Virus record (IMG/VR): IMGVR_UViG_3300036846_001134 | Coordinates: 2,379 to 66,378 of that record | Source: a virus | Strand: one strand, 5' to 3' | Length of the DNA: 64,000 bases | Shown here: one piece after another, positions 2,612 through 37,285 of the stretch | Numbering within the stretch: the first letter of the stretch is position 1 | How the letters are laid out: each line of letters begins with the position of its first letter | Made by a program: the position numbers and the translations under genes | The notes under the pieces: model-generated | The model's database searches: none | The model's input: only the letters and a program-made list of their open reading frames with translations | Told to the model about the DNA's origin: nothing

Positions 2612-3205
2612 ATGACGACGACGACAGCAACACCGACAGCAACACCCTCCGCCCAGGACATAGCCCGCAAGCTACAGCATGCCCTAGTCTTGGCCGGGCT
2701 CCACGTGACCGAGGGCAAGAGCGAGCAGGCCAAGGACTTACGCCTGGCCTTGAAGCTCATCACCGAGTGCCTTACCCCTGCCCAGGTGGACCAGGCCAGG
2801 GCCACGCTGAAGGCCATGAAGGCGCCCAAAGCCCCCACGGTTACCCCCGTGACCATCACCCACGTGCCCATGCAGACTGGCCGCGCCCCGCAAGCCCCTC
2901 CCAGGCTAGCGGCAGCGCCGCCAGCGCCTAAGCCGACCAGCCTTGAGTCCGCGATTAGCAGCTTTCCCCCTGTGTTCGGCTTCCGGCATTTCGCCGATTC
3001 GATCCGGTTTCGGATTAGCCCCTCCGAAAGCCTGGTTACCCCCGAGGGTAAGATCCTGCTCGCCGTCCACCGCCTGGCCAAGGGCTCGACCACGGAGAGC
3101 GCCTTGTTCGGGAAAGTCAGCCCGGAAGGACTGCGGAGTCAGGTCGCGGCATGGGCCGCGACTAAGACCGGAGAGATAAGCTATGACCAAAGAGATAAGC
3201 TATGA
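2612..3205 (+). CDS. Hypothetical early protein
   Basis: 197-aa ORF directly after P1, with AAGGA RBS and ACCCC-ATG. Confidence 0.7.
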   Translation: MTTTTATPTATPSAQDIARKLQHALVLAGLHVTEGKSEQAKDLRLALKLITECLTPAQVDQARATLKAMKAPKAPTVTPVTITHVPMQTGRAPQAPPRLAAAPPAPKPTSLESAISSFPPVFGFRHFADSIRFRISPSESLVTPEGKILLAVHRLAKGSTTESALFGKVSPEGLRSQVAAWAATKTGEISYDQRDKL

Positions 3206-3300
3206 CCAAAGAGTTACTCCAGAACGTCGCCATCGCGCTACTGATTGTAGCCCTCTGGCTAGGCTTCGCGGCTGTGGTCGCCGAATCGCTCACGCCGTGA
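3202..3300 (+). CDS. Small membrane peptide (32 aa)
   Basis: MTKELLQNVAIALLIVALWLGFAAVVAESLTP; ATGA overlap with upstream stop. Confidence 0.5.
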   Translation: MTKELLQNVAIALLIVALWLGFAAVVAESLTP

Positions 3301-3320
3301 TGGCGCTGGCGACGGGAGAT
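3280..3320 (+). ncRNA. Degenerate hammerhead remnant (3' half only)
   Basis: gccGAAT-stem III-AC-gggagat matches copies 2 and 3; no CUGANGA upstream. Confidence 0.5.
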
Positions 3321-3347
3321 CCACCGGGCATGGCATAACCCATGCGA

Positions 3348-3392
3348 TTTCACCCCCACTCGCTTGACAAAAATCGAGCGATGCGGCAAACT
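3348..3392 (+). promoter_or_regulatory. Early promoter P2
   Basis: TTTCACCCC; TTGACA at 3364-3369; 17 nt; CAAACT. Confidence 0.8.
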
Positions 3393-3440
3393 GGTTTCAG
3401 TGGCGCGAGAAACGCCCAGGACTTAGAGGAGACTTACCCC

Positions 3441-3587
3441 ATGACGAACGCTAACTTCAACGCCGATGACTTTGACCTGATGGAACAGACCGACACCTAC
3501 CTGGCCAGCCTGGACCTGGAGATGGTCTGGGAATATGCGGACGCCCATGACGACCTGGCCAACTGGCTCAAGGCGGACCTGGACTAA
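3441..3587 (+). CDS. Small acidic early protein (48 aa)
   Basis: GAGGAG RBS, ACCCC-ATG; Asp/Glu-rich. Confidence 0.65.
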   Translation: MTNANFNADDFDLMEQTDTYLASLDLEMVWEYADAHDDLANWLKADLD

Positions 3588-3642
3588 ATCCCCTGACGAT
3601 GGCCCACTGGGAAGGGGCCGAAATGCCGCGAGGCATCGGGAT
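3588..3642 (+). ncRNA. Type I hammerhead ribozyme HH1 (AUC, predicted cut after 3637)
   Basis: auccc-CUGACGA-U-ggccc/gggcc-GAAA-ugcc(GCGA)ggca-UC-gggau. Confidence 0.9.
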
Positions 3643-3668
3643 ATTTCCCACAGAGAGAAACACACACC

Positions 3669-3935
3669 ATGACGACCACACAGACCATCGACACCGACGC
3701 CTTGCTGGCCCAGCTGGAGGCCCTCCGGGCGGAGAACGACAAGCTGCGCACGCAGCCCAGGACGGCATCGCCGCTAACCCTGCGGGTAAGCGAGAAGGGC
3801 GCCTTGAGCGTCTACGGCATGGGCCGCTTCCCGGTCACGCTGTACCGCGAGCAGTGGACCAAGCTGCTCGGCTACGCCGACCAGATCCGCGAGTTCATCC
3901 GGGTGAACGACGCCAGCCTCGCGACCAAGCAGTAA
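3669..3935 (+). CDS. Conserved small phage protein (88 aa)
   Basis: Coiled N-terminus plus LRVSEKGALSVYGMGRFPVTLY. Confidence 0.75.
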   Translation: MTTTQTIDTDALLAQLEALRAENDKLRTQPRTASPLTLRVSEKGALSVYGMGRFPVTLYREQWTKLLGYADQIREFIRVNDASLATKQ

Positions 3936-4001
3936 CTCCCCTGACGATGGCCTATGGGGATAGGCCGAATGGCTCATGCCGGGAGGCATTGGCCACGGGA
4001 G
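3936..4001 (+). ncRNA. Hammerhead ribozyme HH2 (U15.1-A16.1 variant, predicted cut after 3996)
   Basis: cuccc-CUGACGA-U-ggccuau/auaggcc-GAA-U-extended stem III (GGGA loop)-A-C-gggag. Confidence 0.8.
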
Positions 4002-4012
4002 ATACCCACACC

Positions 4013-4180
4013 ATGACGACGACTTACAACGGCCTGATTCAGGCCATGACCATCATCCATGCGGCCAAGAGCGAAGTTACCCGCGAGGAAGGCATGATGA
4101 TTACCCCGCACTGGCGCATGCTGCTGCATGCCGGGGAGTACCTGAACAGGCAGGCCACTGACTTACTCCGAGGTGAGTAA
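4013..4180 (+). CDS. Small hypothetical early protein (55 aa)
   Basis: ATG downstream of GGGAG of HH2. Confidence 0.65.
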   Translation: MTTTYNGLIQAMTIIHAAKSEVTREEGMMITPHWRMLLHAGEYLNRQATDLLRGE

Positions 4181-4223
4181 GTCGCAACCGGGTGGGCTAA
4201 GTCTAGCGGCTAGGCCCACCGCG

Positions 4224-4268
4224 TTTCACCCCAAGTTGCTTGACAATTTTCGAGCGATTTGAGAAACT
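4224..4268 (+). promoter_or_regulatory. Early promoter P3
   Basis: TTTCACCCC; TTGACA at 4240-4245; 17 nt; TGn-GAAACT; preceded by GC hairpin ~4191-4220. Confidence 0.8.
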
Positions 4269-4294
4269 GGAAATCGAGCGAGGAGATACACCCC

Positions 4295-4510
4295 ATGAGT
4301 AAGACGAAAGACAAGACGGTAACCTGGAGCGAAAGCTCAAGCGCCTACTGGTTCGACTGCGGCTACCGCACGGCGTGCTGCGGCGACGGCGTGGATATGT
4401 TCTTCACCGAGGACGGTGAGGCTATCAGTCCTGGCACGCCGGAATTCGAGGCGTGCATGGACGCGGCATGCCTGGACCCGGAGACGTGGGAGGCTTACTT
4501 TGGCAGTTAG
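4295..4510 (+). CDS. Small acidic Cys-containing protein
   Basis: GAGGAG RBS, ACCCC-ATG. Confidence 0.7.
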   Translation: MSKTKDKTVTWSESSSAYWFDCGYRTACCGDGVDMFFTEDGEAISPGTPEFEACMDAACLDPETWEAYFGS

Positions 4511-4514
4511 CTAA

Positions 4515-4568
4515 CTCCCCTGACGATGGCCCACGGGGGTGGGCCGAATCGCCGCGAGGCGACGGGAG
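4515..4568 (+). ncRNA. Hammerhead ribozyme HH3 (U15.1-A16.1 variant, predicted cut after 4563)
   Basis: cuccc-CUGACGA-U-ggcccac(gggg)gugggcc-GAA-U-cgcc(GCGA)ggcg-A-C-gggag. Confidence 0.8.
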
Positions 4569-4591
4569 ATACCCACAAGGAGAGTAACCCC

Positions 4592-4852
4592 ATGACGAAC
4601 ACTAACGAACCAATCCGTAGGGCGACCTACGCCAAGATGCGTGCCGCGCTCAAAGCCGCGCTTGAGGACCTGGAGATCCTGAGCGGCGACAAGGTCGGCC
4701 CGAGCGGCGTAAGCTGGCAGGACGTGGCCGGAACCTGCGCCACTAACTTCCAGGTGCTGGTCTGGAACCTGGAACGGGCGCGGCAAGGCTATGCCGAGCC
4801 TAACATCACCTTCCCGTCGCCTGCCGAATGCCTGGAGGAGAGCCATGAGTAA
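4592..4852 (+). CDS. Hypothetical early protein
   Basis: AAGGAG RBS, ACCCC-ATG. Confidence 0.7.
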   Translation: MTNTNEPIRRATYAKMRAALKAALEDLEILSGDKVGPSGVSWQDVAGTCATNFQVLVWNLERARQGYAEPNITFPSPAECLEESHE

Positions 4853-4997
4853 CGGCGCCTGGTACGACTACACCTTGCAGGCCTGGGTGGTGGACGGGCG
4901 CTATGTCCCCTGCGGCCACCCGGCCAGCATGAACTGCGCCTGCTACGGCAGGCTGCATGCCGGGGAGACGGCGACCGAGCGGGAGGAGGGCCAGTGA
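4845..4997 (+). CDS. Small Cys/His protein
   Basis: GGAGGAG RBS; YDYTLQAWVVDGRYVPCGHP..C.CYG. Confidence 0.65.
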   Translation: MSNGAWYDYTLQAWVVDGRYVPCGHPASMNCACYGRLHAGETATEREEGQ

Positions 4998-5152
4998 TCC
5001 GCGACTCTATCGCCTCCGCTTGCACATGGCTATGGGTCGCCTCCCTGATAGTAGCGGCGTTCCTGCCGCACGGCCATTGGACCTTCGACTACGCCTGCTA
5101 TGCGAGCTTCGTCGGTTTCATGGGCTGGATTGTCGCTATGTTGAGCCGCTAA
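4994..5152 (+). CDS. Small two-TM membrane protein (52 aa)
   Basis: GTG start overlapping upstream TGA; hydrophobic; stop abuts HH4. Confidence 0.55.
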   Translation: MIRDSIASACTWLWVASLIVAAFLPHGHWTFDYACYASFVGFMGWIVAMLSR

Positions 5153-5153
5153 C

Positions 5154-5201
5154 CCCCTGACGAGGCCGTGCGAGTCGGCCGAAACGCCGTGAGGCGTAGG
5201 G
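5154..5201 (+). ncRNA. Hammerhead ribozyme HH4 (GUA, predicted cut after 5198)
   Basis: ccc-CUGACGA-ggccg(ugcgagu)cggcc-GAAA-cgcc(GUGA)ggcg-UA-ggg. Confidence 0.9.
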
Positions 5202-5216
5202 AGAAAACCGGACCCG

Positions 5217-5261
5217 TTTCACCCCAAATTGCTTGACAAAAATCGAGCGATTTGCGATACT
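5217..5261 (+). promoter_or_regulatory. Early promoter P4
   Basis: TTTCACCCC; TTGACA at 5233-5238; 17 nt; TGn-GATACT. Confidence 0.85.
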
Positions 5262-5320
5262 GGGTTCAACGGCGCGAACAAGCGCCGCCAACGTTCAGAC
5301 GAGAGATAAGGATACACCCC

Positions 5321-6154
5321 ATGAATACGATCAACATGCGTCACAGCGTCCGTTCCATGACGGCGCTCTCTAACGACCAGCTTAGGGCGGTTGCCCCGAG
5401 CGTGTTTGCCATGGAGCCATGGCACCGGATGAGCGACAAGTACGCCTTCATCCCCACCATCGCGGTCATCGAGCGGATGCGGGAAGAGGGCTTCCAGCCC
5501 GTGCAGGCCATGCAGTCGAGGACCCGCATCGAGGGCAAGGGGGACTTCACCAAGCACCTGATCCGCTTCCGCGACATGCGCCAGGGGGACCAGCCCTTGA
5601 CCCGCCAGCTGGGCGTGGTCTACCCCGAGCTGGTCCTGACCAACAGCCACGACGGGGCCAGCGCCTATAAGCTCGATAGCGGGCTGTTCCGCCTGGTCTG
5701 CACCAACGGCATGGTGGTCGGCGACGGCGTGGTCAATCACATCAGCGTGCGCCACACCGGAAGCCCGGACGGCGTGATCAACGCGAGCTTTGAGGTCATC
5801 GACCAGATGCCCAAGGTGATCGACAGCGTGGAGAACTTCCAGCGGCTGCGGCTAGAGGCGCCGCAGGCCGAGGTGTTCGCCACCGCCGCGCTTCAACTGC
5901 GCTACGACGAGGGGGAGGCGCCTATCACTCCCGCCCAGGTGCTGCAACCGCGCCGCATGGAGGACTCTACGCCCACCCTGTGGAACACCTTCAACCGCGC
6001 CCAGGAAGCCCTGGTCGGCGGCGGTATCCGGGGCCGCAGCGCCGAGACGCGCCGTCGCCTGCGGACGCGCCCGGTGGAAGGCATCACCGAGAACACCAAG
6101 CTGAACAAGGCCCTCTGGACCTTGGCCGAGGAGATGCGCAAGCTGATGAGCTAA
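5321..6154 (+). CDS. DUF932/DUF945 family protein
   Basis: SDKYAFIPT, TKHLIRFR, LTNSHDG, LFRLVCTNGMV, LWNTFNRAQE, KLNKALW motifs typical of this phage/plasmid family. Confidence 0.85.
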   Translation: MNTINMRHSVRSMTALSNDQLRAVAPSVFAMEPWHRMSDKYAFIPTIAVIERMREEGFQPVQAMQSRTRIEGKGDFTKHLIRFRDMRQGDQPLTRQLGVVYPELVLTNSHDGASAYKLDSGLFRLVCTNGMVVGDGVVNHISVRHTGSPDGVINASFEVIDQMPKVIDSVENFQRLRLEAPQAEVFATAALQLRYDEGEAPITPAQVLQPRRMEDSTPTLWNTFNRAQEALVGGGIRGRSAETRRRLRTRPVEGITENTKLNKALWTLAEEMRKLMS

Positions 6155-6202
6155 CCGGGAAGGGGGCCGCGAGGCCCCCACGCCCAACCTAAAGGAAAAC
6201 CC

Positions 6203-6502
6203 ATGGAACAAATTAAACCCTACGAACTAAGCCTGGGCATCGAGCACCTGATGACGGGCGCGGAATTGGTCAGCGAGACTGGGCGCAGCTTTCACTTCGA
6301 GTACGAGAGCCCGAGCGTGGTGCGCGTCACCTGCCGGGAGCCCTTCGCCTGCTACTGGAGGCCGCAAGGCCAGGACAGTGCGCCCATCAAGCTGAATGCC
6401 ACCTTGGCCGACCACGGCCTGACCCTGGAGTTCAGCGAGAGCGAGGTGCGATTCTTCGCCCGCGACATGGCCGAGGCCATGCGGGCCAAGTTCAACAGCT
6501 AA
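6203..6502 (+). CDS. Hypothetical early protein
   Basis: AAGGA RBS; stop abuts HH5. Confidence 0.7.
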   Translation: MEQIKPYELSLGIEHLMTGAELVSETGRSFHFEYESPSVVRVTCREPFACYWRPQGQDSAPIKLNATLADHGLTLEFSESEVRFFARDMAEAMRAKFNS

Positions 6503-6503
6503 C

Positions 6504-6551
6504 CCCCTGACGAGGCCGTGCGAGTCGGCCGAAACGCCGCGAGGCGTCGGG
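6504..6551 (+). ncRNA. Hammerhead ribozyme HH5 (GUC, predicted cut after 6548)
   Basis: Canonical core; stem II as in HH4; GCGA loop III. Confidence 0.9.
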
Positions 6552-6574
6552 ACATATTCCCAAGGACCAACCCC

Positions 6575-6871
6575 ATGACGACGACGATAGAACTCACCCC
6601 GAGCCTGACCTCCATGCGGATCATCGCCTGGACCGACGAGGCCGTATACCTGAGACTGCCGCTCGAACTACAGCGCGACTGCGGCGGCTGTAGCTGCGAG
6701 CAATGCAAGAAAAATCCGAAACTCGCGAAATGGGACACGCTGGCGGTGCCCGTCAAGGGCAAGCCGCGCGGATCGTACAGCGAGAACCACTCCTGGACCG
6801 TCCACATGCCGGACGGCGCGGTGGCGGGCTTCATGGAGTACATGAAGAACAAGGCCAAGGAGAAAGCCTGA
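6575..6871 (+). CDS. Cys-rich hypothetical early protein
   Basis: CGGCSCEQC motif; ACCCC-ATG. Confidence 0.7.
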   Translation: MTTTIELTPSLTSMRIIAWTDEAVYLRLPLELQRDCGGCSCEQCKKNPKLAKWDTLAVPVKGKPRGSYSENHSWTVHMPDGAVAGFMEYMKNKAKEKA

Positions 6872-6990
6872 TGGCCGACAGCGATAGCGGCTGCGCACTG
6901 GTGGGCTGCGGCATCGTGGGCTACTTCGCGTTCTGGGCCGTGGTGATCGTTGCCGCAACCTTGCTCGTGAAGTTCGTCTGGACCTGGTAG
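6871..6990 (+). CDS. Small membrane peptide (39 aa)
   Basis: TGATG coupling; hydrophobic stretch. Confidence 0.55.
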   Translation: MADSDSGCALVGCGIVGYFAFWAVVIVAATLLVKFVWTW

Positions 6991-6999
6991 CCCATCAAC

Positions 7000-7047
7000 C
7001 CCCTGACGAGGCCGTGAGAGTCGGCCGAAACGCCGCGAGGCGTCGGG
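7000..7047 (+). ncRNA. Hammerhead ribozyme HH6 (GUC, predicted cut after 7044)
   Basis: Canonical core; loop II ugagagu. Confidence 0.9.
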
Positions 7048-7070
7048 AGAGAAAGGAATCCCATTACCCC

Positions 7071-7310
7071 ATGACCGCAAACAAAACCTACGCGCTTACC
7101 GATACCTTGCGCACGCCGGCACGCGAGCTTCACCCCTTCCCCGGCCTGTTCTACTACTCGGGCTTTGGCATGGGCCACTACTACTCGACCGACGGCACGG
7201 CCCACTGGGCGGCATCGAGCGAGGCCAAGGACCTGGCCGCGAGCGAGGGCGTCAAGTACGTCTACGTGGACGCGCTCGAAGGCTACCAGGCCGTCTACCT
7301 GGGCGACTAG
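7071..7310 (+). CDS. Hypothetical early protein
   Basis: AAAGGA RBS, ACCCC-ATG. Confidence 0.7.
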   Translation: MTANKTYALTDTLRTPARELHPFPGLFYYSGFGMGHYYSTDGTAHWAASSEAKDLAASEGVKYVYVDALEGYQAVYLGD

Positions 7311-7315
7311 GCGCA

Positions 7316-7359
7316 TTTCACCCCAAGCACTTGACAAAATTCGAGCAACGTGAGAAACT
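7316..7359 (+). promoter_or_regulatory. Early promoter P5
   Basis: TTTCACCCC; TTGACA at 7331-7336; 17 nt; TGn-GAAACT. Confidence 0.85.
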
Positions 7360-7381
7360 GGAAATCGAAAGGAAACACCCC

Positions 7382-7672
7382 ATGAACTGGAGCGTACCCG
7401 CTACCGACTACGCGGTAATCGTCAAGATTGCCCAACGCGCCACGGCCCTCGCCAGGCGCTACAACGTGAACTACCCGCAGGGCACCGCCCTGATGGACCT
7501 GACGGCCTGCCACGCCAATGCCTTCCGCCTGCGCGTGGAGGAGTTGCTCAAGGCCGATGACTCTAACTTCGCCCATGACGTGTTCGGCATCCGCCGCCAC
7601 CTCGACCGCGAGACGGGCAAGCTCGCGGATTGCTTCGTGCCGCGCTTCGCGAGCAAGGAGGCGGTGAACTAG
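7382..7672 (+). CDS. Conserved phage protein (DUF6874-like)
   Basis: MDLTACHAN..LLKADDSNFAHDVFGIRRHLDRETGKL..CFVPRF; family name recalled, not searched. Confidence 0.6.
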   Translation: MNWSVPATDYAVIVKIAQRATALARRYNVNYPQGTALMDLTACHANAFRLRVEELLKADDSNFAHDVFGIRRHLDRETGKLADCFVPRFASKEAVN

Positions 7673-7674
7673 CC

Positions 7675-7842
7675 ATGCGGAAGTACATCATCGTGCGCAA
7701 CACCGACCGTCCCGGTCACTGCCATGTCGAGATCCACAAGTACATCGGCCAGGAGGAAGGCATCCCGTGCTATGAGCACTACCGGACGATGAAGAACTTC
7801 CCCGAGGCGGCGGACCTGATCCGGCGTCTGGAAGCCGCCTAA
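7675..7842 (+). CDS. Small hypothetical protein
   Basis: GGAGG upstream; stop abuts HH7. Confidence 0.6.
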   Translation: MRKYIIVRNTDRPGHCHVEIHKYIGQEEGIPCYEHYRTMKNFPEAADLIRRLEAA

Positions 7843-7843
7843 C

Positions 7844-7902
7844 CCCCTGACGAGCCCGTGAAAGTCGGCGCGAAACGCCCCGTCGAGATGACGGCGCGTC
7901 GG
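7844..7902 (+). ncRNA. Hammerhead ribozyme HH7 (GUC, predicted cut after 7899)
   Basis: Canonical core; bulged stem II; stem III extended by ccguc/gacgg. Confidence 0.88.
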
Positions 7903-7926
7903 GACATTATCCCAAGGACATACCCC

Positions 7927-8313
7927 ATGACAGAACGATTCTTTATCGACAGGCCCGTACAGACGGGCGCAATGAGCCAGCCGCGCGACCTGGACGACGC
8001 CGTCTTCCCCACTTACGCGGAGATGGACGGCAACCTGCTCAAGTGGAGCGGCAGCTTCCCCCTGCCCGAGGTGGGCGCCCACGTCTACATCACCATGAAC
8101 AACATCGGCTGGGCCTACGTGGAAGGCTACTTTGCGAGCGCTGGCTACCTGGGCGTGATGACTCGTGCCACCAACCCGCCCGCGTGGCTGCGCAGGCAGC
8201 AGCGCGAGCGCGCCAACTGCCCCAACTCGCCCGAGTGGGTGCGCAAGGGCATCGGCTGCGAGTTCGGGACCGAGATCGCGCTGACCAAACCCAGGCGCAA
8301 GGAGGTGGCATAG
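7927..8313 (+). CDS. Hypothetical early protein
   Basis: AAGGA RBS, ACCCC-ATG. Confidence 0.7.
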   Translation: MTERFFIDRPVQTGAMSQPRDLDDAVFPTYAEMDGNLLKWSGSFPLPEVGAHVYITMNNIGWAYVEGYFASAGYLGVMTRATNPPAWLRRQQRERANCPNSPEWVRKGIGCEFGTEIALTKPRRKEVA

Positions 8314-8315
8314 CC

Positions 8316-8579
8316 ATGACGATAGACCAAGCCTGCGAGAGAGCCCGCCAGCTGCGCGGCAAGCAATTCCTGATGCCCCAGGACCGGGACGCGCTGGATA
8401 GCCTGATGGGCGCGGCGCTGGTGGCCCAGCGCCTGATGGCCCGCCTGGAAACCCTGGAGTCGCTGACGGGCGCGCTCCAGGATACCAACGAAAGCTCCGA
8501 CGGTGGCGAGAGCTACATGGTGATGGGCAATGTGGACACGGCCCTATTGATCGAGGTTGGGCTGCGGAGGGCGAAATGA
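8316..8579 (+). CDS. Hypothetical protein
   Basis: GGAGGT RBS. Confidence 0.65.
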   Translation: MTIDQACERARQLRGKQFLMPQDRDALDSLMGAALVAQRLMARLETLESLTGALQDTNESSDGGESYMVMGNVDTALLIEVGLRRAK

Positions 8580-8890
8580 CCAAGACCATCGACATCACCC
8601 CCAACTTCGCGCATCTGTTCGCGATGTTCATAGAGCAGGCCCGCACCCAGGGCCTGCACATCACCCGCTACCTGCCGCTAGAGGAGGTGGTCAACAAGCC
8701 CGCCACGCTCGCGGCCGTGCTGCGCGGCTTTGAAGGCCCTATCGTGGCGCTCAACATCGCCGCGAGCGCCATGACCACGGCCGAGGAGGTCGAGCAGCTG
8801 CGCAGCGTGCTGAGCGAGTTGGCGAGCTACCTCGACCAGACCGCAGGCCGCCTGGAGAAGCAGGCCGAGGGGGAGGACGGCAAGCGATGA
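8576..8890 (+). CDS. Hypothetical protein
   Basis: ATGA overlap, GGAGG RBS. Confidence 0.7.
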   Translation: MTKTIDITPNFAHLFAMFIEQARTQGLHITRYLPLEEVVNKPATLAAVLRGFEGPIVALNIAASAMTTAEEVEQLRSVLSELASYLDQTAGRLEKQAEGEDGKR

Positions 8891-9033
8891 GTTGGTGCAT
8901 GTATTGCTGCCTCGCGCTTCATCCAACGATGTTGACTGGGTATTGCCTGACCCGGTGCAAGTGCGACAACTGTGGCCGTACGGCGGATCTGGCGATGGTG
9001 AAACCTAAGATGAGCACCGAGGAAAAGCAGTAA
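8887..9033 (+). CDS. Small Cys-rich (zinc-ribbon-like) protein (48 aa)
   Basis: CMYC...CKCDNC; ATGA overlap; stop abuts HH8. Confidence 0.6.
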   Translation: MSWCMYCCLALHPTMLTGYCLTRCKCDNCGRTADLAMVKPKMSTEEKQ

Positions 9034-9034
9034 C

Positions 9035-9083
9035 CCCCTGACGAGGCCGTGAAAGTCGCGCCGAAACGCCGTGAGGCGTCGGG
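9035..9083 (+). ncRNA. Hammerhead ribozyme HH8 (GUC, predicted cut after 9080)
   Basis: Canonical core; loop II ugaaagu; bulged stem II. Confidence 0.9.
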
Positions 9084-9108
9084 ACACATTCCCAAGGAAA
9101 CAAACCCC

Positions 9109-9288
9109 ATGACAACGACAACCTACGTGGCCGTGCAGCAGACCGGAAAGCGCACGACCTTCGAGCGCGAGGAGGAGGCCAGGACCTTCGCCGAGCGCTG
9201 CCGGAGAGACGACATGTTCACCTACATCCTGGAAGTCAAGACGCGGTTCCTGGCGAGCTATTGCCCCGAGCCGGCGGAGGTGAAATAG
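9109..9288 (+). CDS. Small hypothetical protein
   Basis: AAGGA RBS, ACCCC-ATG. Confidence 0.65.
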   Translation: MTTTTYVAVQQTGKRTTFEREEEARTFAERCRRDDMFTYILEVKTRFLASYCPEPAEVK

Positions 9289-9290
9289 CC

Positions 9291-9545
9291 ATGCCAAAAC
9301 CCAAGGACCTGATTGCCTACATCGTCGCCAAGGTGCGGATCGCGCCGCGCGATGGCGAAAAGTACGACTTCGACCATGTGGCCGGGTATATCGAGGGCGC
9401 GCTCTCGCGGGCCATGCGGGAGAACGATCCCGAGGACGACGTGGTGGACCTGATTACATTCCACCAGAACCGCGCGCCGCTTGAAACCGCCGCGCTCGAC
9501 AGGCTGTTGAGCACCGGGATGATCGACGAGGAGACGAAATCATGA
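9291..9545 (+). CDS. Hypothetical protein
   Basis: GGAGGTGA RBS. Confidence 0.7.
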   Translation: MPKPKDLIAYIVAKVRIAPRDGEKYDFDHVAGYIEGALSRAMRENDPEDDVVDLITFHQNRAPLETAALDRLLSTGMIDEETKS

Positions 9546-9775
9546 CCACCACCGAGAAACTGATCCAGTCCCAGGTCAAGCGCCTGGGCGAGAGCTTCGA
9601 GCGCCTCAAGGTCTGGACCGACTTCAACTATCAGGCCACGCGCGCCTGTCCCGCCAACCCCGAGCAGATCCTGCGCGAGAGCAACCGCGTCGCGCAGCTG
9701 GCCGAGGGTATCGAGCACCTGATCGAGCGCCGCGCCAAGGAGATAGCGGCGGCCAAGAAGGTGAAGCAGCCATGA
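9542..9775 (+). CDS. Hypothetical protein
   Basis: ATGA overlap. Confidence 0.7.
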   Translation: MTTTEKLIQSQVKRLGESFERLKVWTDFNYQATRACPANPEQILRESNRVAQLAEGIEHLIERRAKEIAAAKKVKQP

Positions 9776-10101
9776 GCAAACTGATTGGCAAGCGCTTCCG
9801 CACCCTGATTCCTGATTACGAGGAGGACGAGGAGTACGGCGAGGTGACGCATCCCATAGGCAGCGAGTTCATTGTCGTCGCCAACCTGGACTACCAGTGG
9901 GGCGAGCCGGGGGACAAGGGCTACGGCTACGCGCACAGCGTGTCCTGGCAGGGGACCGCCCTGCCGGGAAGCTGGCAGGGCGGCAAGAAGAAGCTGTTCG
10001 TCGTCACCGGGACGCCCGTGCCAGCCGAGGGTATGTGGTGCATCTGGACCGACGTCGAGATTGCCCGCGACGCCGTGGAGGTGACGGAACCAACCCCCTG
10101 A
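9772..10101 (+). CDS. Hypothetical protein
   Basis: ATGA overlap; its TGA stop is the UGA of the HH9 core. Confidence 0.7.
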   Translation: MSKLIGKRFRTLIPDYEEDEEYGEVTHPIGSEFIVVANLDYQWGEPGDKGYGYAHSVSWQGTALPGSWQGGKKKLFVVTGTPVPAEGMWCIWTDVEIARDAVEVTEPTP

Positions 10102-10143
10102 CGAGCCCGTGAAAGTCGGTGCGAAACGCCGTGAGGCGTCGGG
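10095..10143 (+). ncRNA. Hammerhead ribozyme HH9 (GUC, predicted cut after 10140)
   Basis: ccc-CUGACGA-gcccg(ugaaagu)cggugc-GAAA-cgcc(GUGA)ggcg-UC-ggg. Confidence 0.88.
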
Positions 10144-10147
10144 AGCA

Positions 10148-10192
10148 TTTCACCCCGCTGCGCTTGACAAAATTCAAGCGCAATGCGAAACT
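10148..10192 (+). promoter_or_regulatory. Early promoter P6
   Basis: TTTCACCCC; TTGACA at 10164-10169; 17 nt; TGn-GAAACT. Confidence 0.85.
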
Positions 10193-10214
10193 GATTATTG
10201 AAAGGCAATACCCC

Positions 10215-10544
10215 ATGACAAACACGCAACGAAGACGCAACGGCGCAGTCGCGTTCAAAGCTTACGCCGACCGTATGAAGCTGGACGCCATCGAGCGCAA
10301 GCAGGACTACTCGATCACCGACTGCATCACCGACCTGCTGCACTACGCGCGTGCCCGTAAGCACGACACGAACAGCATCCTGCGTAGCGCGGACAATCAT
10401 TTCTCGGCCGAAACCCTAGCCGTGGAGCACTGCGCCGTCTGCGGCGCTGGAATCAGCATGGCCGAGTTGGAGGAGGGCACGCTCGTTTCCAAGAGCGGGA
10501 ATAAGTTTTACTGCTCGGCGAAGTGCGAGGAGAAGAACGCATGA
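10215..10544 (+). CDS. Hypothetical protein with C-terminal TRASH/YHS-like Cys motif
   Basis: ITDLLHY motif; CAVCG...FYCSAKC. Confidence 0.65.
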   Translation: MTNTQRRRNGAVAFKAYADRMKLDAIERKQDYSITDCITDLLHYARARKHDTNSILRSADNHFSAETLAVEHCAVCGAGISMAELEEGTLVSKSGNKFYCSAKCEEKNA

Positions 10545-10933
10545 AGACCACCGACAACCCACGCGCCCACGGCCGCACGCCGCGAGTGCTCGTGCCCGTG
10601 ACGACGCTCGACTTCGCCGCCCGCGCCTTCACCACTGCCGTGCGCAAGCTCGACGGGCCGCACGCGGACACGGAGTTGATCCGCGAGCTGCTCATGATCC
10701 GCGAGCGTCTTTCCCTGCTGGCCGCCCAGAAACCCGCGCGGCCCCGCGCCCCCAAGGGCCATGCCATCGTGCCCAAAGCGCTACTGCATGAGGCTATCGG
10801 CGACATCCTGGATGGAGCCAATGAGTTCGAGGACGCTGCGGGCTACTGCAACGACACGGACGCGGAGTCCTGCGAGTCCCACGGCGACGGCATGCGCCAG
10901 ACGGCGAGCAAGCTACGGAGGTACGCGAGATGA
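10541..10933 (+). CDS. Hypothetical protein
   Basis: ATGA overlap, GAGGAG RBS. Confidence 0.65.
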   Translation: MKTTDNPRAHGRTPRVLVPVTTLDFAARAFTTAVRKLDGPHADTELIRELLMIRERLSLLAAQKPARPRAPKGHAIVPKALLHEAIGDILDGANEFEDAAGYCNDTDAESCESHGDGMRQTASKLRRYAR

Positions 10934-10966
10934 GCAAATACTCGCGGGCGGTGGAGGGCAAATAAG

Positions 10967-11212
10967 ATGACGAAATTGCGTTTCAAGCAGAATCACGTCT
11001 TCGTGATGGGACAGGGGAGAGTGCTGCGCGGCGAGGTGCGCCTGCCGAATCCCTTCACGGAAAAGCGCAGCAGAATCTGGGAGCAGGAGGTGGAGGTTGA
11101 ACTGGAAGGACCTCACGCCCGCGTGAGCATGGTCCTGCGCCGCGACGCCGCGCTTCAGCTTGCCGATGCAATCCGCGCATTGGCGGAAAGGTTGCCGGAA
11201 TGCCAACCCTGA
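10967..11212 (+). CDS. Hypothetical protein
   Basis: GGAGG RBS. Confidence 0.55.
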   Translation: MTKLRFKQNHVFVMGQGRVLRGEVRLPNPFTEKRSRIWEQEVEVELEGPHARVSMVLRRDAALQLADAIRALAERLPECQP

Positions 11213-36963: not shown

Positions 36964-37285
36964 TGAGCATCATTGGATCGATCCCGCTTTCAATCAGGTA
37001 ATCGACCAATGCCTCTTGAGAGATCAGCATGCTTTTCTGCGAATCGCCGCGCGGCGGCTCGATCACCCCGCTGCGCCCCCGGAAGCGCCGCACCACCGTG
37101 GTCGGATGGACGCGCAGGCGCTTGGCCACCTCGCTGACCTTCCAATAGTAGGGGAGATCCTCGATGGCGCTGATGGGGACCTTGGGCTTGGGCTTGACCT
37201 TGGGCTTCGCCCCGTTAGCAGAGCTGGCCGTGCCGGGCCGTTTCTTGGACACACGTAGAGCCGGGCGCTTGATTTTAGTCGCCAT
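36950..37285 (-). CDS. Excisionase-like HTH protein
   Basis: YWKVSEVAKRLRVHPTTVVRRF; heads the integrase-oriented operon. Confidence 0.65.
   Translation of the reverse strand: MATKIKRPALRVSKKRPGTASSANGAKPKVKPKPKVPISAIEDLPYYWKVSEVAKRLRVHPTTVVRRFRGRSGVIEPPRGDSQKSMLISQEALVDYLIESGIDPMMLSVAV

Follow-up and report, generated by a model that had tools for sequence, protein, structure and literature searches.

The early gene region of an uncultured soil phage carries nine small RNA elements that are very probably genuine hammerhead ribozymes, and we consider it likely, with somewhat less assurance, that these ribozymes cut in the cell and define the ends of mRNAs of one to four genes. The elements (HH1 to HH9) lie in the 64,000-nucleotide (nt) window analysed here, which comprises bases 2379–66378 of the 66,378-base IMG/VR virus record IMGVR_UViG_3300036846_001134, rated complete; positions given below are those of the window. 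Direct observation covers the hammerhead motif with its covariation, the sites at which the copies lie, and their recurrence in a related phage; these are presented before the proposed function and its alternatives.

All nine elements predicted in an earlier sequence-only reading of this DNA are present on the + strand with the starts it gave (Table 1), and each matches the type I hammerhead consensus to which it had been assigned. Every copy reads CCC and CUGACGA, then GAA, then stem III flanked by N15.1 and N16.1, then H and GGG. This is the type I order of stem I 5′ strand, CUGANGA, hairpin II, GAA, hairpin III, H17 and stem I 3′ strand, and in all nine stem I is open and stems II and III are closed by loops. 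The consensus core is C3-U4-G5-A6-N7-G8-A9 according to the Methods of PMC3088659; it is CUGACGA in all nine copies, and G12-A13-A14 is GAA in all nine. The closing pair 15.1/16.1 is A-U in seven copies and shows a compensated swap to U-A in HH2 and HH3, and H17 is C in eight copies and A in one. A GNRA loop III, claimed for most elements, was counted in eight of the nine. Eight of the nine predicted cut positions stand as first given, and the cut of HH7 moves by one base, from after 7899 to after 7900.

The copies form two sub-types. In HH1–3, stem I has 5 base pairs (bp), A9 and G10.1 are separated by an extra U, and GGGG or GGGA closes a stem II of 7 bp. Stem I of HH4–9 consists of CCC/GGG alone (3 bp) followed by a C·A mismatch, and their 5-bp stem II carries the cap U-GNRA-GU, with a one-base bulge in HH7–9. 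The pairs adjoining the core (10.1-11.1 and 1.1-2.1) are without insertion in HH4–9, in contrast to the extra U of HH1–3.

A chance origin of the nine motifs is excluded. A strict pattern, by design unable to match the two GAAU copies, gave seven matches where 0.17 were expected, and none of 100 shuffles reached seven. A three-helix descriptor applied to the whole 66,378-base genome found seven elements on the + strand and none on the − strand (mean 0.19 and maximum 2 in 100 shuffles); it missed HH7 and HH9 because of the bulge in stem II. Since no Rfam model reached its gathering score, we built a covariance model, R1, from the nine copies. On the window, R1 recovered all nine at 47.9–83.1 bits together with a remnant at 3248–3320, which is one copy with a mutated core. 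The 3′ half of the remnant is intact (GAAU, extended stem III, AC, GGGAGAU), its 5′ core reads CUGGCUA, its helices have decayed too, and it overlaps a 32-codon hydrophobic frame (3202–3300). Two further R1 matches in the window, at 36999 and 18372 (E 0.86–0.89), were set aside as noise.

The claim that the core stays fixed while the stems change with compensation holds for the nine copies, for eight more in a relative and for 57 further R1 matches on other contigs (E <= 1e-4). The relative emerged from the search of related phage genomes that the sequence-only reading had proposed; it is a 63,568-base record (63.6 kb) with a DUF932 protein 90% identical to the one here, and R1 finds its eight copies in the last 7 kb. 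When both phages are taken together, all 17 copies agree in the nine unpaired core bases and N7 is C or U, giving CUGA(C/U)GA and GAA in 17/17; H17 in the relative is C in seven copies and U in one. Stem I is CCC/GGG in all 17 copies, while stems II and III vary. Forms of stem II include GGCCG/CGGCC, GCCCA/UGGGC, GCCGG/CCGGC and GCUAG/CUAGC, and stem III has 5 to 11 pairs of unrelated sequence. The fairest single test of core against stem change is the orthologous site before the DUF932 gene, where HH4 and the copy of the relative have flanks ~80% identical, wholly different stems II and III, and the same core.

Pair counts in larger sets agree with the proposed helices. A metagenome scan for the HH4–9 sub-type yielded 45 further contigs, and with four single-copy loci R1 finds 79 matches, 74 of them distinct. 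In alignments that were fitted to the model and so lean towards its structure, 90.3% of cells are paired over 21 sequences, compared with 78.8% after shuffling, and double changes occur in 11 of 14 pairs; over the 74 distinct sequences, the corresponding figures are 94.1% of cells paired and double changes in 13 of 14 pairs (169 cells). None of 500 shuffles scored as high in either set, and slid-partner controls on the 74 sequences gave 22.9–48.8% paired. The pattern that retrieved the outside sequences fixes the core, and therefore only their stem covariation counts.

Both sub-types recur beyond these two genomes. Other metagenome contigs hold three or four copies of the HH4–9 type I sub-type within 1–3 kb (Table 1), and arrays of this sub-type therefore extend beyond the phage pair. 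Of 77 loci of more distant DUF932 relatives, 17 were searched with R1; these gave no convincing match, the single hit being at E 0.68. A viral scan placed the extra-U sub-type in 16 elements of 15 further contigs, which speaks for recurrence only, as the pattern required the extra U; five other viral records with this sub-type have one or two R1 matches each. The U15.1-A16.1 swap, the extra U and the GGGAGAUACCC tail occur together in two other viral records of ~60 kb (L136 and the second match of L143), each time with a different stem III, and recurrence of the swap on other stem III sequences suggests a maintained variant rather than decay.

The nine elements are all on the coding strand, start 0–9 nt past a stop codon and never lie within genes; at HH9, the TGA stop of the upstream gene is itself U4-G5-A6 of the core. 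The stop codon therefore always stays on the upstream product, given the type I topology. The downstream RNA is predicted to begin with GGGA, and (U)CCC follows 3–10 nt further in most copies. The sequence GGGA-N3-10-TCCC stands after five of the nine cut sites and at 11 of 259 other GGGA sites in the genome, a contrast that paralogy inflates. When the first 34 nt of the downstream products are folded, the lowest-energy structure has a paired 5′ end in 16 of the 17 copies of the two phages, a count with no shuffle control that paralogy likewise inflates. Leaders like that of HH5 (Table 1) also follow HH1–3 and HH6–8, with an AAGGA-type ribosome-binding site in or just 3′ of the leader hairpin. 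Two plain hairpins without U tracts, at 4191–4220 (−23.2 kcal/mol, z −2.4) and 6162–6179 (−22.1 kcal/mol, z −2.2), sit directly after stop codons at positions equivalent to those of the ribozymes.

The region is not the single early polycistron that it had been taken for, as six sigma-70-like promoter repeats are interleaved with the ribozymes. Each repeat consists of an invariant TTTCACCCC box, 7–8 nt and TTGACAA (six matches, 0 expected, only in the early region), followed by a 17-nt spacer and a TG-extended G(A/T)AACT-like −10 hexamer; one of the six was called by a promoter scanner. Possible identities of the upstream TTTCACCCC box are an UP-like element and a regulator site. HH4 stands directly before promoter repeat P4, HH9 directly before P6 and the remnant before P2, and the first copy of the relative likewise precedes a promoter. 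No intrinsic terminator was found after a gene (6 terminator-like sites against 10.9 expected). The proposed units of one to four genes do appear on the map, since the blocks between hammerheads hold one to four genes each; within a block, neighbouring genes abut or overlap, and it is in the larger intergenic gaps that the ribozymes sit. The start-context motif CCCCATGA has 14 matches in the window where 2.5 were expected, and it occurs at 11 unit-leading starts, six of them first genes after promoters and five after ribozymes. It is common to both kinds of start, and the units that begin at predicted ribozyme cuts are thus equivalent to those that begin at promoters.

The first genes after the six promoters and after five ribozymes (11 sites between 2608 and 10218) share the start context ACCCC-ATG-AC, often followed by GACGAC, so that the proteins begin MT or MTTT. 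This context is one base away from the 5′ half of the ribozyme (CCCC-CUGACGA), a resemblance that could be due to coincidence, shared ancestry or recombination.

In the mechanism that we propose, the region would be transcribed from left to right from the six near-identical host-type promoters, without intrinsic terminators. Each ribozyme would fold during transcription, with the CCC/GGG stem I, hairpin II and hairpin III set round the fixed core, and would cut after H17. Nearly the whole ribozyme would be left on the upstream RNA because of the type I topology, giving this RNA a compact 3′ end with a 2′,3′-cyclic phosphate just past the stop codon. The downstream RNA would begin with 5′-OH-GGGA and could fold back on the nearby (U)CCC before the ribosome-binding site and the ACCCC-AUG start. 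The ribozymes would serve as unit boundaries, as terminator substitutes on the 5′ side and as promoter-like unit starts on the 3′ side, and the outcome would be mRNAs of one to four genes with uniform ends. The end chemistry is drawn from established knowledge of hammerheads, and we infer cleavage in the cell and an effect on mRNA stability and translation.

The repeat unit is longer than the ribozyme and takes in the leader as far as the start codon, with ~77–85% identity over 80–95 nt between non-orthologous copies. Comparison of positions 4842–10144 with positions 105–7164 of the relative (L009) shows that gene order differs and that homologous genes stand behind different ribozyme copies. 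The ~90-nt ribozyme-plus-leader units therefore lie at mosaic joints, and they may act as recombination sites. One copy has decayed, and the HH4–9 sub-type is also found singly in unrelated contigs and in two bacterial metagenome-assembled genomes. These features would fit active but chiefly selfish modules of ribozyme and leader that spread into intergenic gaps by recombination and are retained because little harm comes of them, with any role in expression incidental. We regard this explanation as improbable, because all 17 intact copies keep a perfect core despite diverged stems, which argues for selection on catalysis, and because the placement is ordered, always after a stop codon, on the sense strand and never in genes. 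Selfish spread and a role in expression are not mutually exclusive.

The reading of the elements as hammerheads that cut the phage transcripts has to be weighed against several unfavourable observations. The Rfam hammerhead search that had been suggested as a check brought no model to gathering, and at gathering thresholds the whole window gave no Rfam match. In an E-value scan up to 10 over 3000–11000, the best matches scored 20.1 and 19.2 bits, where the threshold is 48.5; both are Hammerhead_3 matches that are circularly permuted misalignments and cover two of the nine copies. The Rfam hammerhead clan CL00010 (Hammerhead_1 RF00163, Hammerhead_3 RF00008 and others) and the nine copies have the catalytic core and the three-helix junction in common, yet none of its models attains the gathering score on any copy. 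Hammerhead_1 was built chiefly from animal type I examples with a long, internally looped stem I. In six of the nine copies here, stem I has three pairs and is without the helix I internal loop, which characterised type I hammerheads use for fast cleavage (PMC6155905), and HH1–3 carry the extra U between A9 and G10.1. In HH4–9, the lowest-energy fold pairs CUGAC of the core with GUCGG and lies 1.4–5.3 kcal/mol below the hammerhead fold. The core invariance of the metagenome set is partly circular, because both the search pattern and the model require the core. Finally, with six promoters inside the region, most blocks could be expressed without a strict need for processing. Minimum-free-energy folding does not settle the matter; the lowest-energy fold of HH1–3 is the hammerhead fold (z −3.9 for HH2). 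The remaining matches of the E-value scan over 3000–11000, to unrelated families, were rejected as chance.

Some of these points would equally suit three-way-junction RNAs that act without self-cleavage, as 3′ stabilisers, as nuclease or protein sites or as translational insulators, with a core that serves folding or with cutting that is too slow. Very short stem I in HH4–9, the lack of an Rfam match at gathering and the competing alternative folds are in keeping with such a role, as are the two copies with U15.1-A16.1, a natural variant with less efficient self-cleavage according to PMC3088659. The plain hairpins at 4191–4220 and 6162–6179 occupy equivalent sites after stop codons, so structure alone may suffice there. 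Folding alone, however, hardly explains why nine unpaired core bases are strict in 17/17 copies, and the compensated U15.1-A16.1 swap turns up in other phages too, on different stem III sequences. We consider a non-cleaving role unlikely for these reasons, and also because conserved features of loop II and a candidate pseudoknot resemble the activating tertiary contacts of known hammerheads.

The putative contacts differ between the sub-types. Of 16 parsable elements of the extra-U sub-type, 14 have a 3–6-nt complement of loop II that starts 2–5 nt into the 3′ tail, compared with 9 of 16 for a control window, and complements of at least 4 nt number three against none in the control window. The partners change together (GGGG-CCC, UGGC-GCCA, CGGCU-AGCCG and UGGGAA-UUCCCA), and a pseudoknot formed by loop II with the 3′ tail is a suggestive candidate. 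It would match the pseudoknots described for all three hammerhead types in PMC3088659. In HH4–9, inspection by eye found neither a pseudoknot joining the U-GNRA-GU loop to the flanks by Watson-Crick pairs nor a distal extension of stem I. The U-GNRA-GU loop II is conserved even where there is no stop codon, and so is an A at position 2.6, which lies two bases to the 5′ side of the mismatch and is present in 70 of 74 sequences; this hints at a non-Watson-Crick contact.

Cleavage could also be followed by rejoining into circular or reshuffled mRNAs, either by reversal of the cleavage reaction or with the help of a host RtcB-type ligase, a possibility raised by Perreault et al. (PMC3088659). Stem I is CCC/GGG in 17/17 copies, so that any ribozyme-bearing 3′ end could pair with any 5′-GGG end, and type I topology keeps the whole catalytic part on the cyclic-phosphate fragment; cut pieces would therefore be interchangeable. 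It is far-fetched to suppose that gene blocks close on themselves or join others into exonuclease-proof circular or reshuffled early mRNAs, each with its own ribosome-binding site, and rejoining of any kind is very unlikely here, since a 3-bp stem I holds the products weakly and Perreault et al. report that no spliced or circular products were detected in their systems (PMC3088659).

Hammerhead arrays of this kind are already in the literature. It had been suggested that they lack description as a system, which is contradicted by Perreault et al. 2011 (PMC3088659), who describe prophage genes, single or in short blocks, that are flanked by multiple hammerheads and state that the arrangement implies processing of long phage transcripts to operon- or gene-length mRNAs. 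Three tandem phage arrangements cleaved during in vitro transcription, and one of them, a triple, also did so in vivo after cloning (PMC3088659). Those clusters resemble the present array in having several coding-strand hammerheads between small phage genes, in the processing role proposed for them and in core variants that include U15.1-A16.1 in phage contexts. They differ in that the arrangements tested were, as described there, tandem sets of ~3 in roughly 2-kb fragments, whereas here a complete free-phage genome carries nine copies in 6.5 kb, interleaved with six promoters, all of type I with an open stem I of 3–5 bp. Both sub-types, or larger arrays, may already be present in the supplementary alignments of PMC3088659. 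The biological role of phage hammerhead clusters is still called open in later reviews (PMC6765202, PMC6155905). The present array is a large and orderly case of an arrangement in print since 2011 and brings no new principle; what distinguishes it is type I architecture with a minimal stem I, two sub-types that Rfam does not catch, and interleaving with promoters.

Two better-known systems invite comparison. In the early transcript of T7, host RNase III cuts between early genes and leaves mRNAs with structured ends. Defined cuts between early genes and structured mRNA ends would be common to both phages; in T7, a host protein enzyme acts on double-stranded hairpins in one transcript from clustered left-end promoters, whereas here the RNA would cut itself, leaving 5′-OH and cyclic-phosphate ends, and the promoters are distributed along the region. 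RiboJ goes back to a type III hammerhead of a satellite RNA. It is a synthetic insulator in which a hammerhead and a 23-nt hairpin normalise 5′ untranslated regions (PMC7536230), and it shares with the phage units the order of ribozyme, hairpin and ribosome-binding site and a uniform 5′ leader whatever is upstream. RiboJ is engineered and leaves the ribozyme largely on the downstream mRNA, in contrast to the natural type I elements here, which would stay on the upstream RNA and leave only GGGA downstream.

The record encodes phage-type proteins, namely an SLT-domain virion protein, a D5-type primase and an SNF2 helicase, and the sole sequencing run listed with it, a DNA run that may represent its source sample, is labelled soil metagenome. 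The early region comprises ~25 small + strand genes from 2612 to 10544, almost all of them orphans apart from the DUF932 protein. A Pfam search with 10 proteins made DUF932 the sole identification in the early region, a PHROGs search with 20 early proteins gave one match, to a family of unknown function, and megablast of 3000–11000 against a phage collection gave no match. At ~3173–3210, a 19-base stretch that includes a ribosome-binding-like GAGA and ATG is tandemly duplicated, where a 197-codon gene meets the small hydrophobic frame. In the non-coding stretch at ~1490–1730, upstream of the early region, GGGGGTTCA-type words recur around an AT-rich centre, as do their reverse complements; an origin, a packaging site and an attachment-type site are possible identities for it.

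Table 1. Hammerhead elements, promoter repeats and an example leader in the window, and copies of the HH4–9 sub-type in metagenome contigs (C3, position of the first core base; R1, covariance-model score)
Feature	Position	Strand	C3	Predicted cut (after H17)	R1 (bits)	Description
HH1	3588–3642	+	3593	C3637	65.2	Stem I 5 bp, extra U, A15.1-U16.1
HH2	3936–4001	+	3941	C3996	47.9	Extra U, U15.1-A16.1, extended stem III
HH3	4515–4568	+	4520	C4563	70.5	Extra U, U15.1-A16.1
HH4	5154–5201	+	5157	5198	81	Stem I 3 bp, loop II U-GCGA-GU, H17 = A
HH5	6504–6551	+	6507	C6548	83.1	Stem I 3 bp
HH6	7000–7047	+	7003	C7044	82.5	Stem I 3 bp
HH7	7844–7903	+	7847	C7900	59.4	Bulged stem II, extended stem III
HH8	9035–9083	+	9038	C9080	79	Bulged stem II
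HH9	10095–10143	+	10098	C10140	72.9	Bulged stem II
Decayed hammerhead remnant	3248–3320	+			22.6	E 0.0011; upstream of promoter repeat P2
Leader after predicted cut of HH5	6549–6577	+				5′-GGGA-N5-UCCC hairpin, AAGGA ribosome-binding site, ACCCC-AUG
Promoter repeat P1	2523–2545	+				TTTCACCCC box, spacer, TTGACAA
Promoter repeat P2	3348–3370	+				Repeat match
Promoter repeat P3	4224–4246	+				Repeat match
Promoter repeat P4	5217–5261	+				Repeat at 5217–5239; TTGACA, 17-nt spacer, GATACT
Promoter repeat P5	7316–7337	+				Repeat match
Promoter repeat P6	10148–10170	+				Repeat match
Metagenome contig L134	250, 750, 1409					HH4–9 sub-type
Metagenome contig L090	576, 1130, 1484					HH4–9 sub-type
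Metagenome contig L096	6583, 7665, 8898, 9787					HH4–9 sub-type
Metagenome contig L131	10273–11194					HH4–9 sub-type

The locus offers a clean test case for the role of such clusters, since its 8 kb contain nine ribozymes and a dead copy alongside six equivalent promoters and two plain hairpins. Together with the eight copies of the relative at partly shuffled positions, this composition makes unit starts produced by ribozymes and unit starts produced by promoters comparable side by side. Rfam models do not reach either sub-type on the nine copies, and such arrays are therefore probably under-counted in phage annotation.

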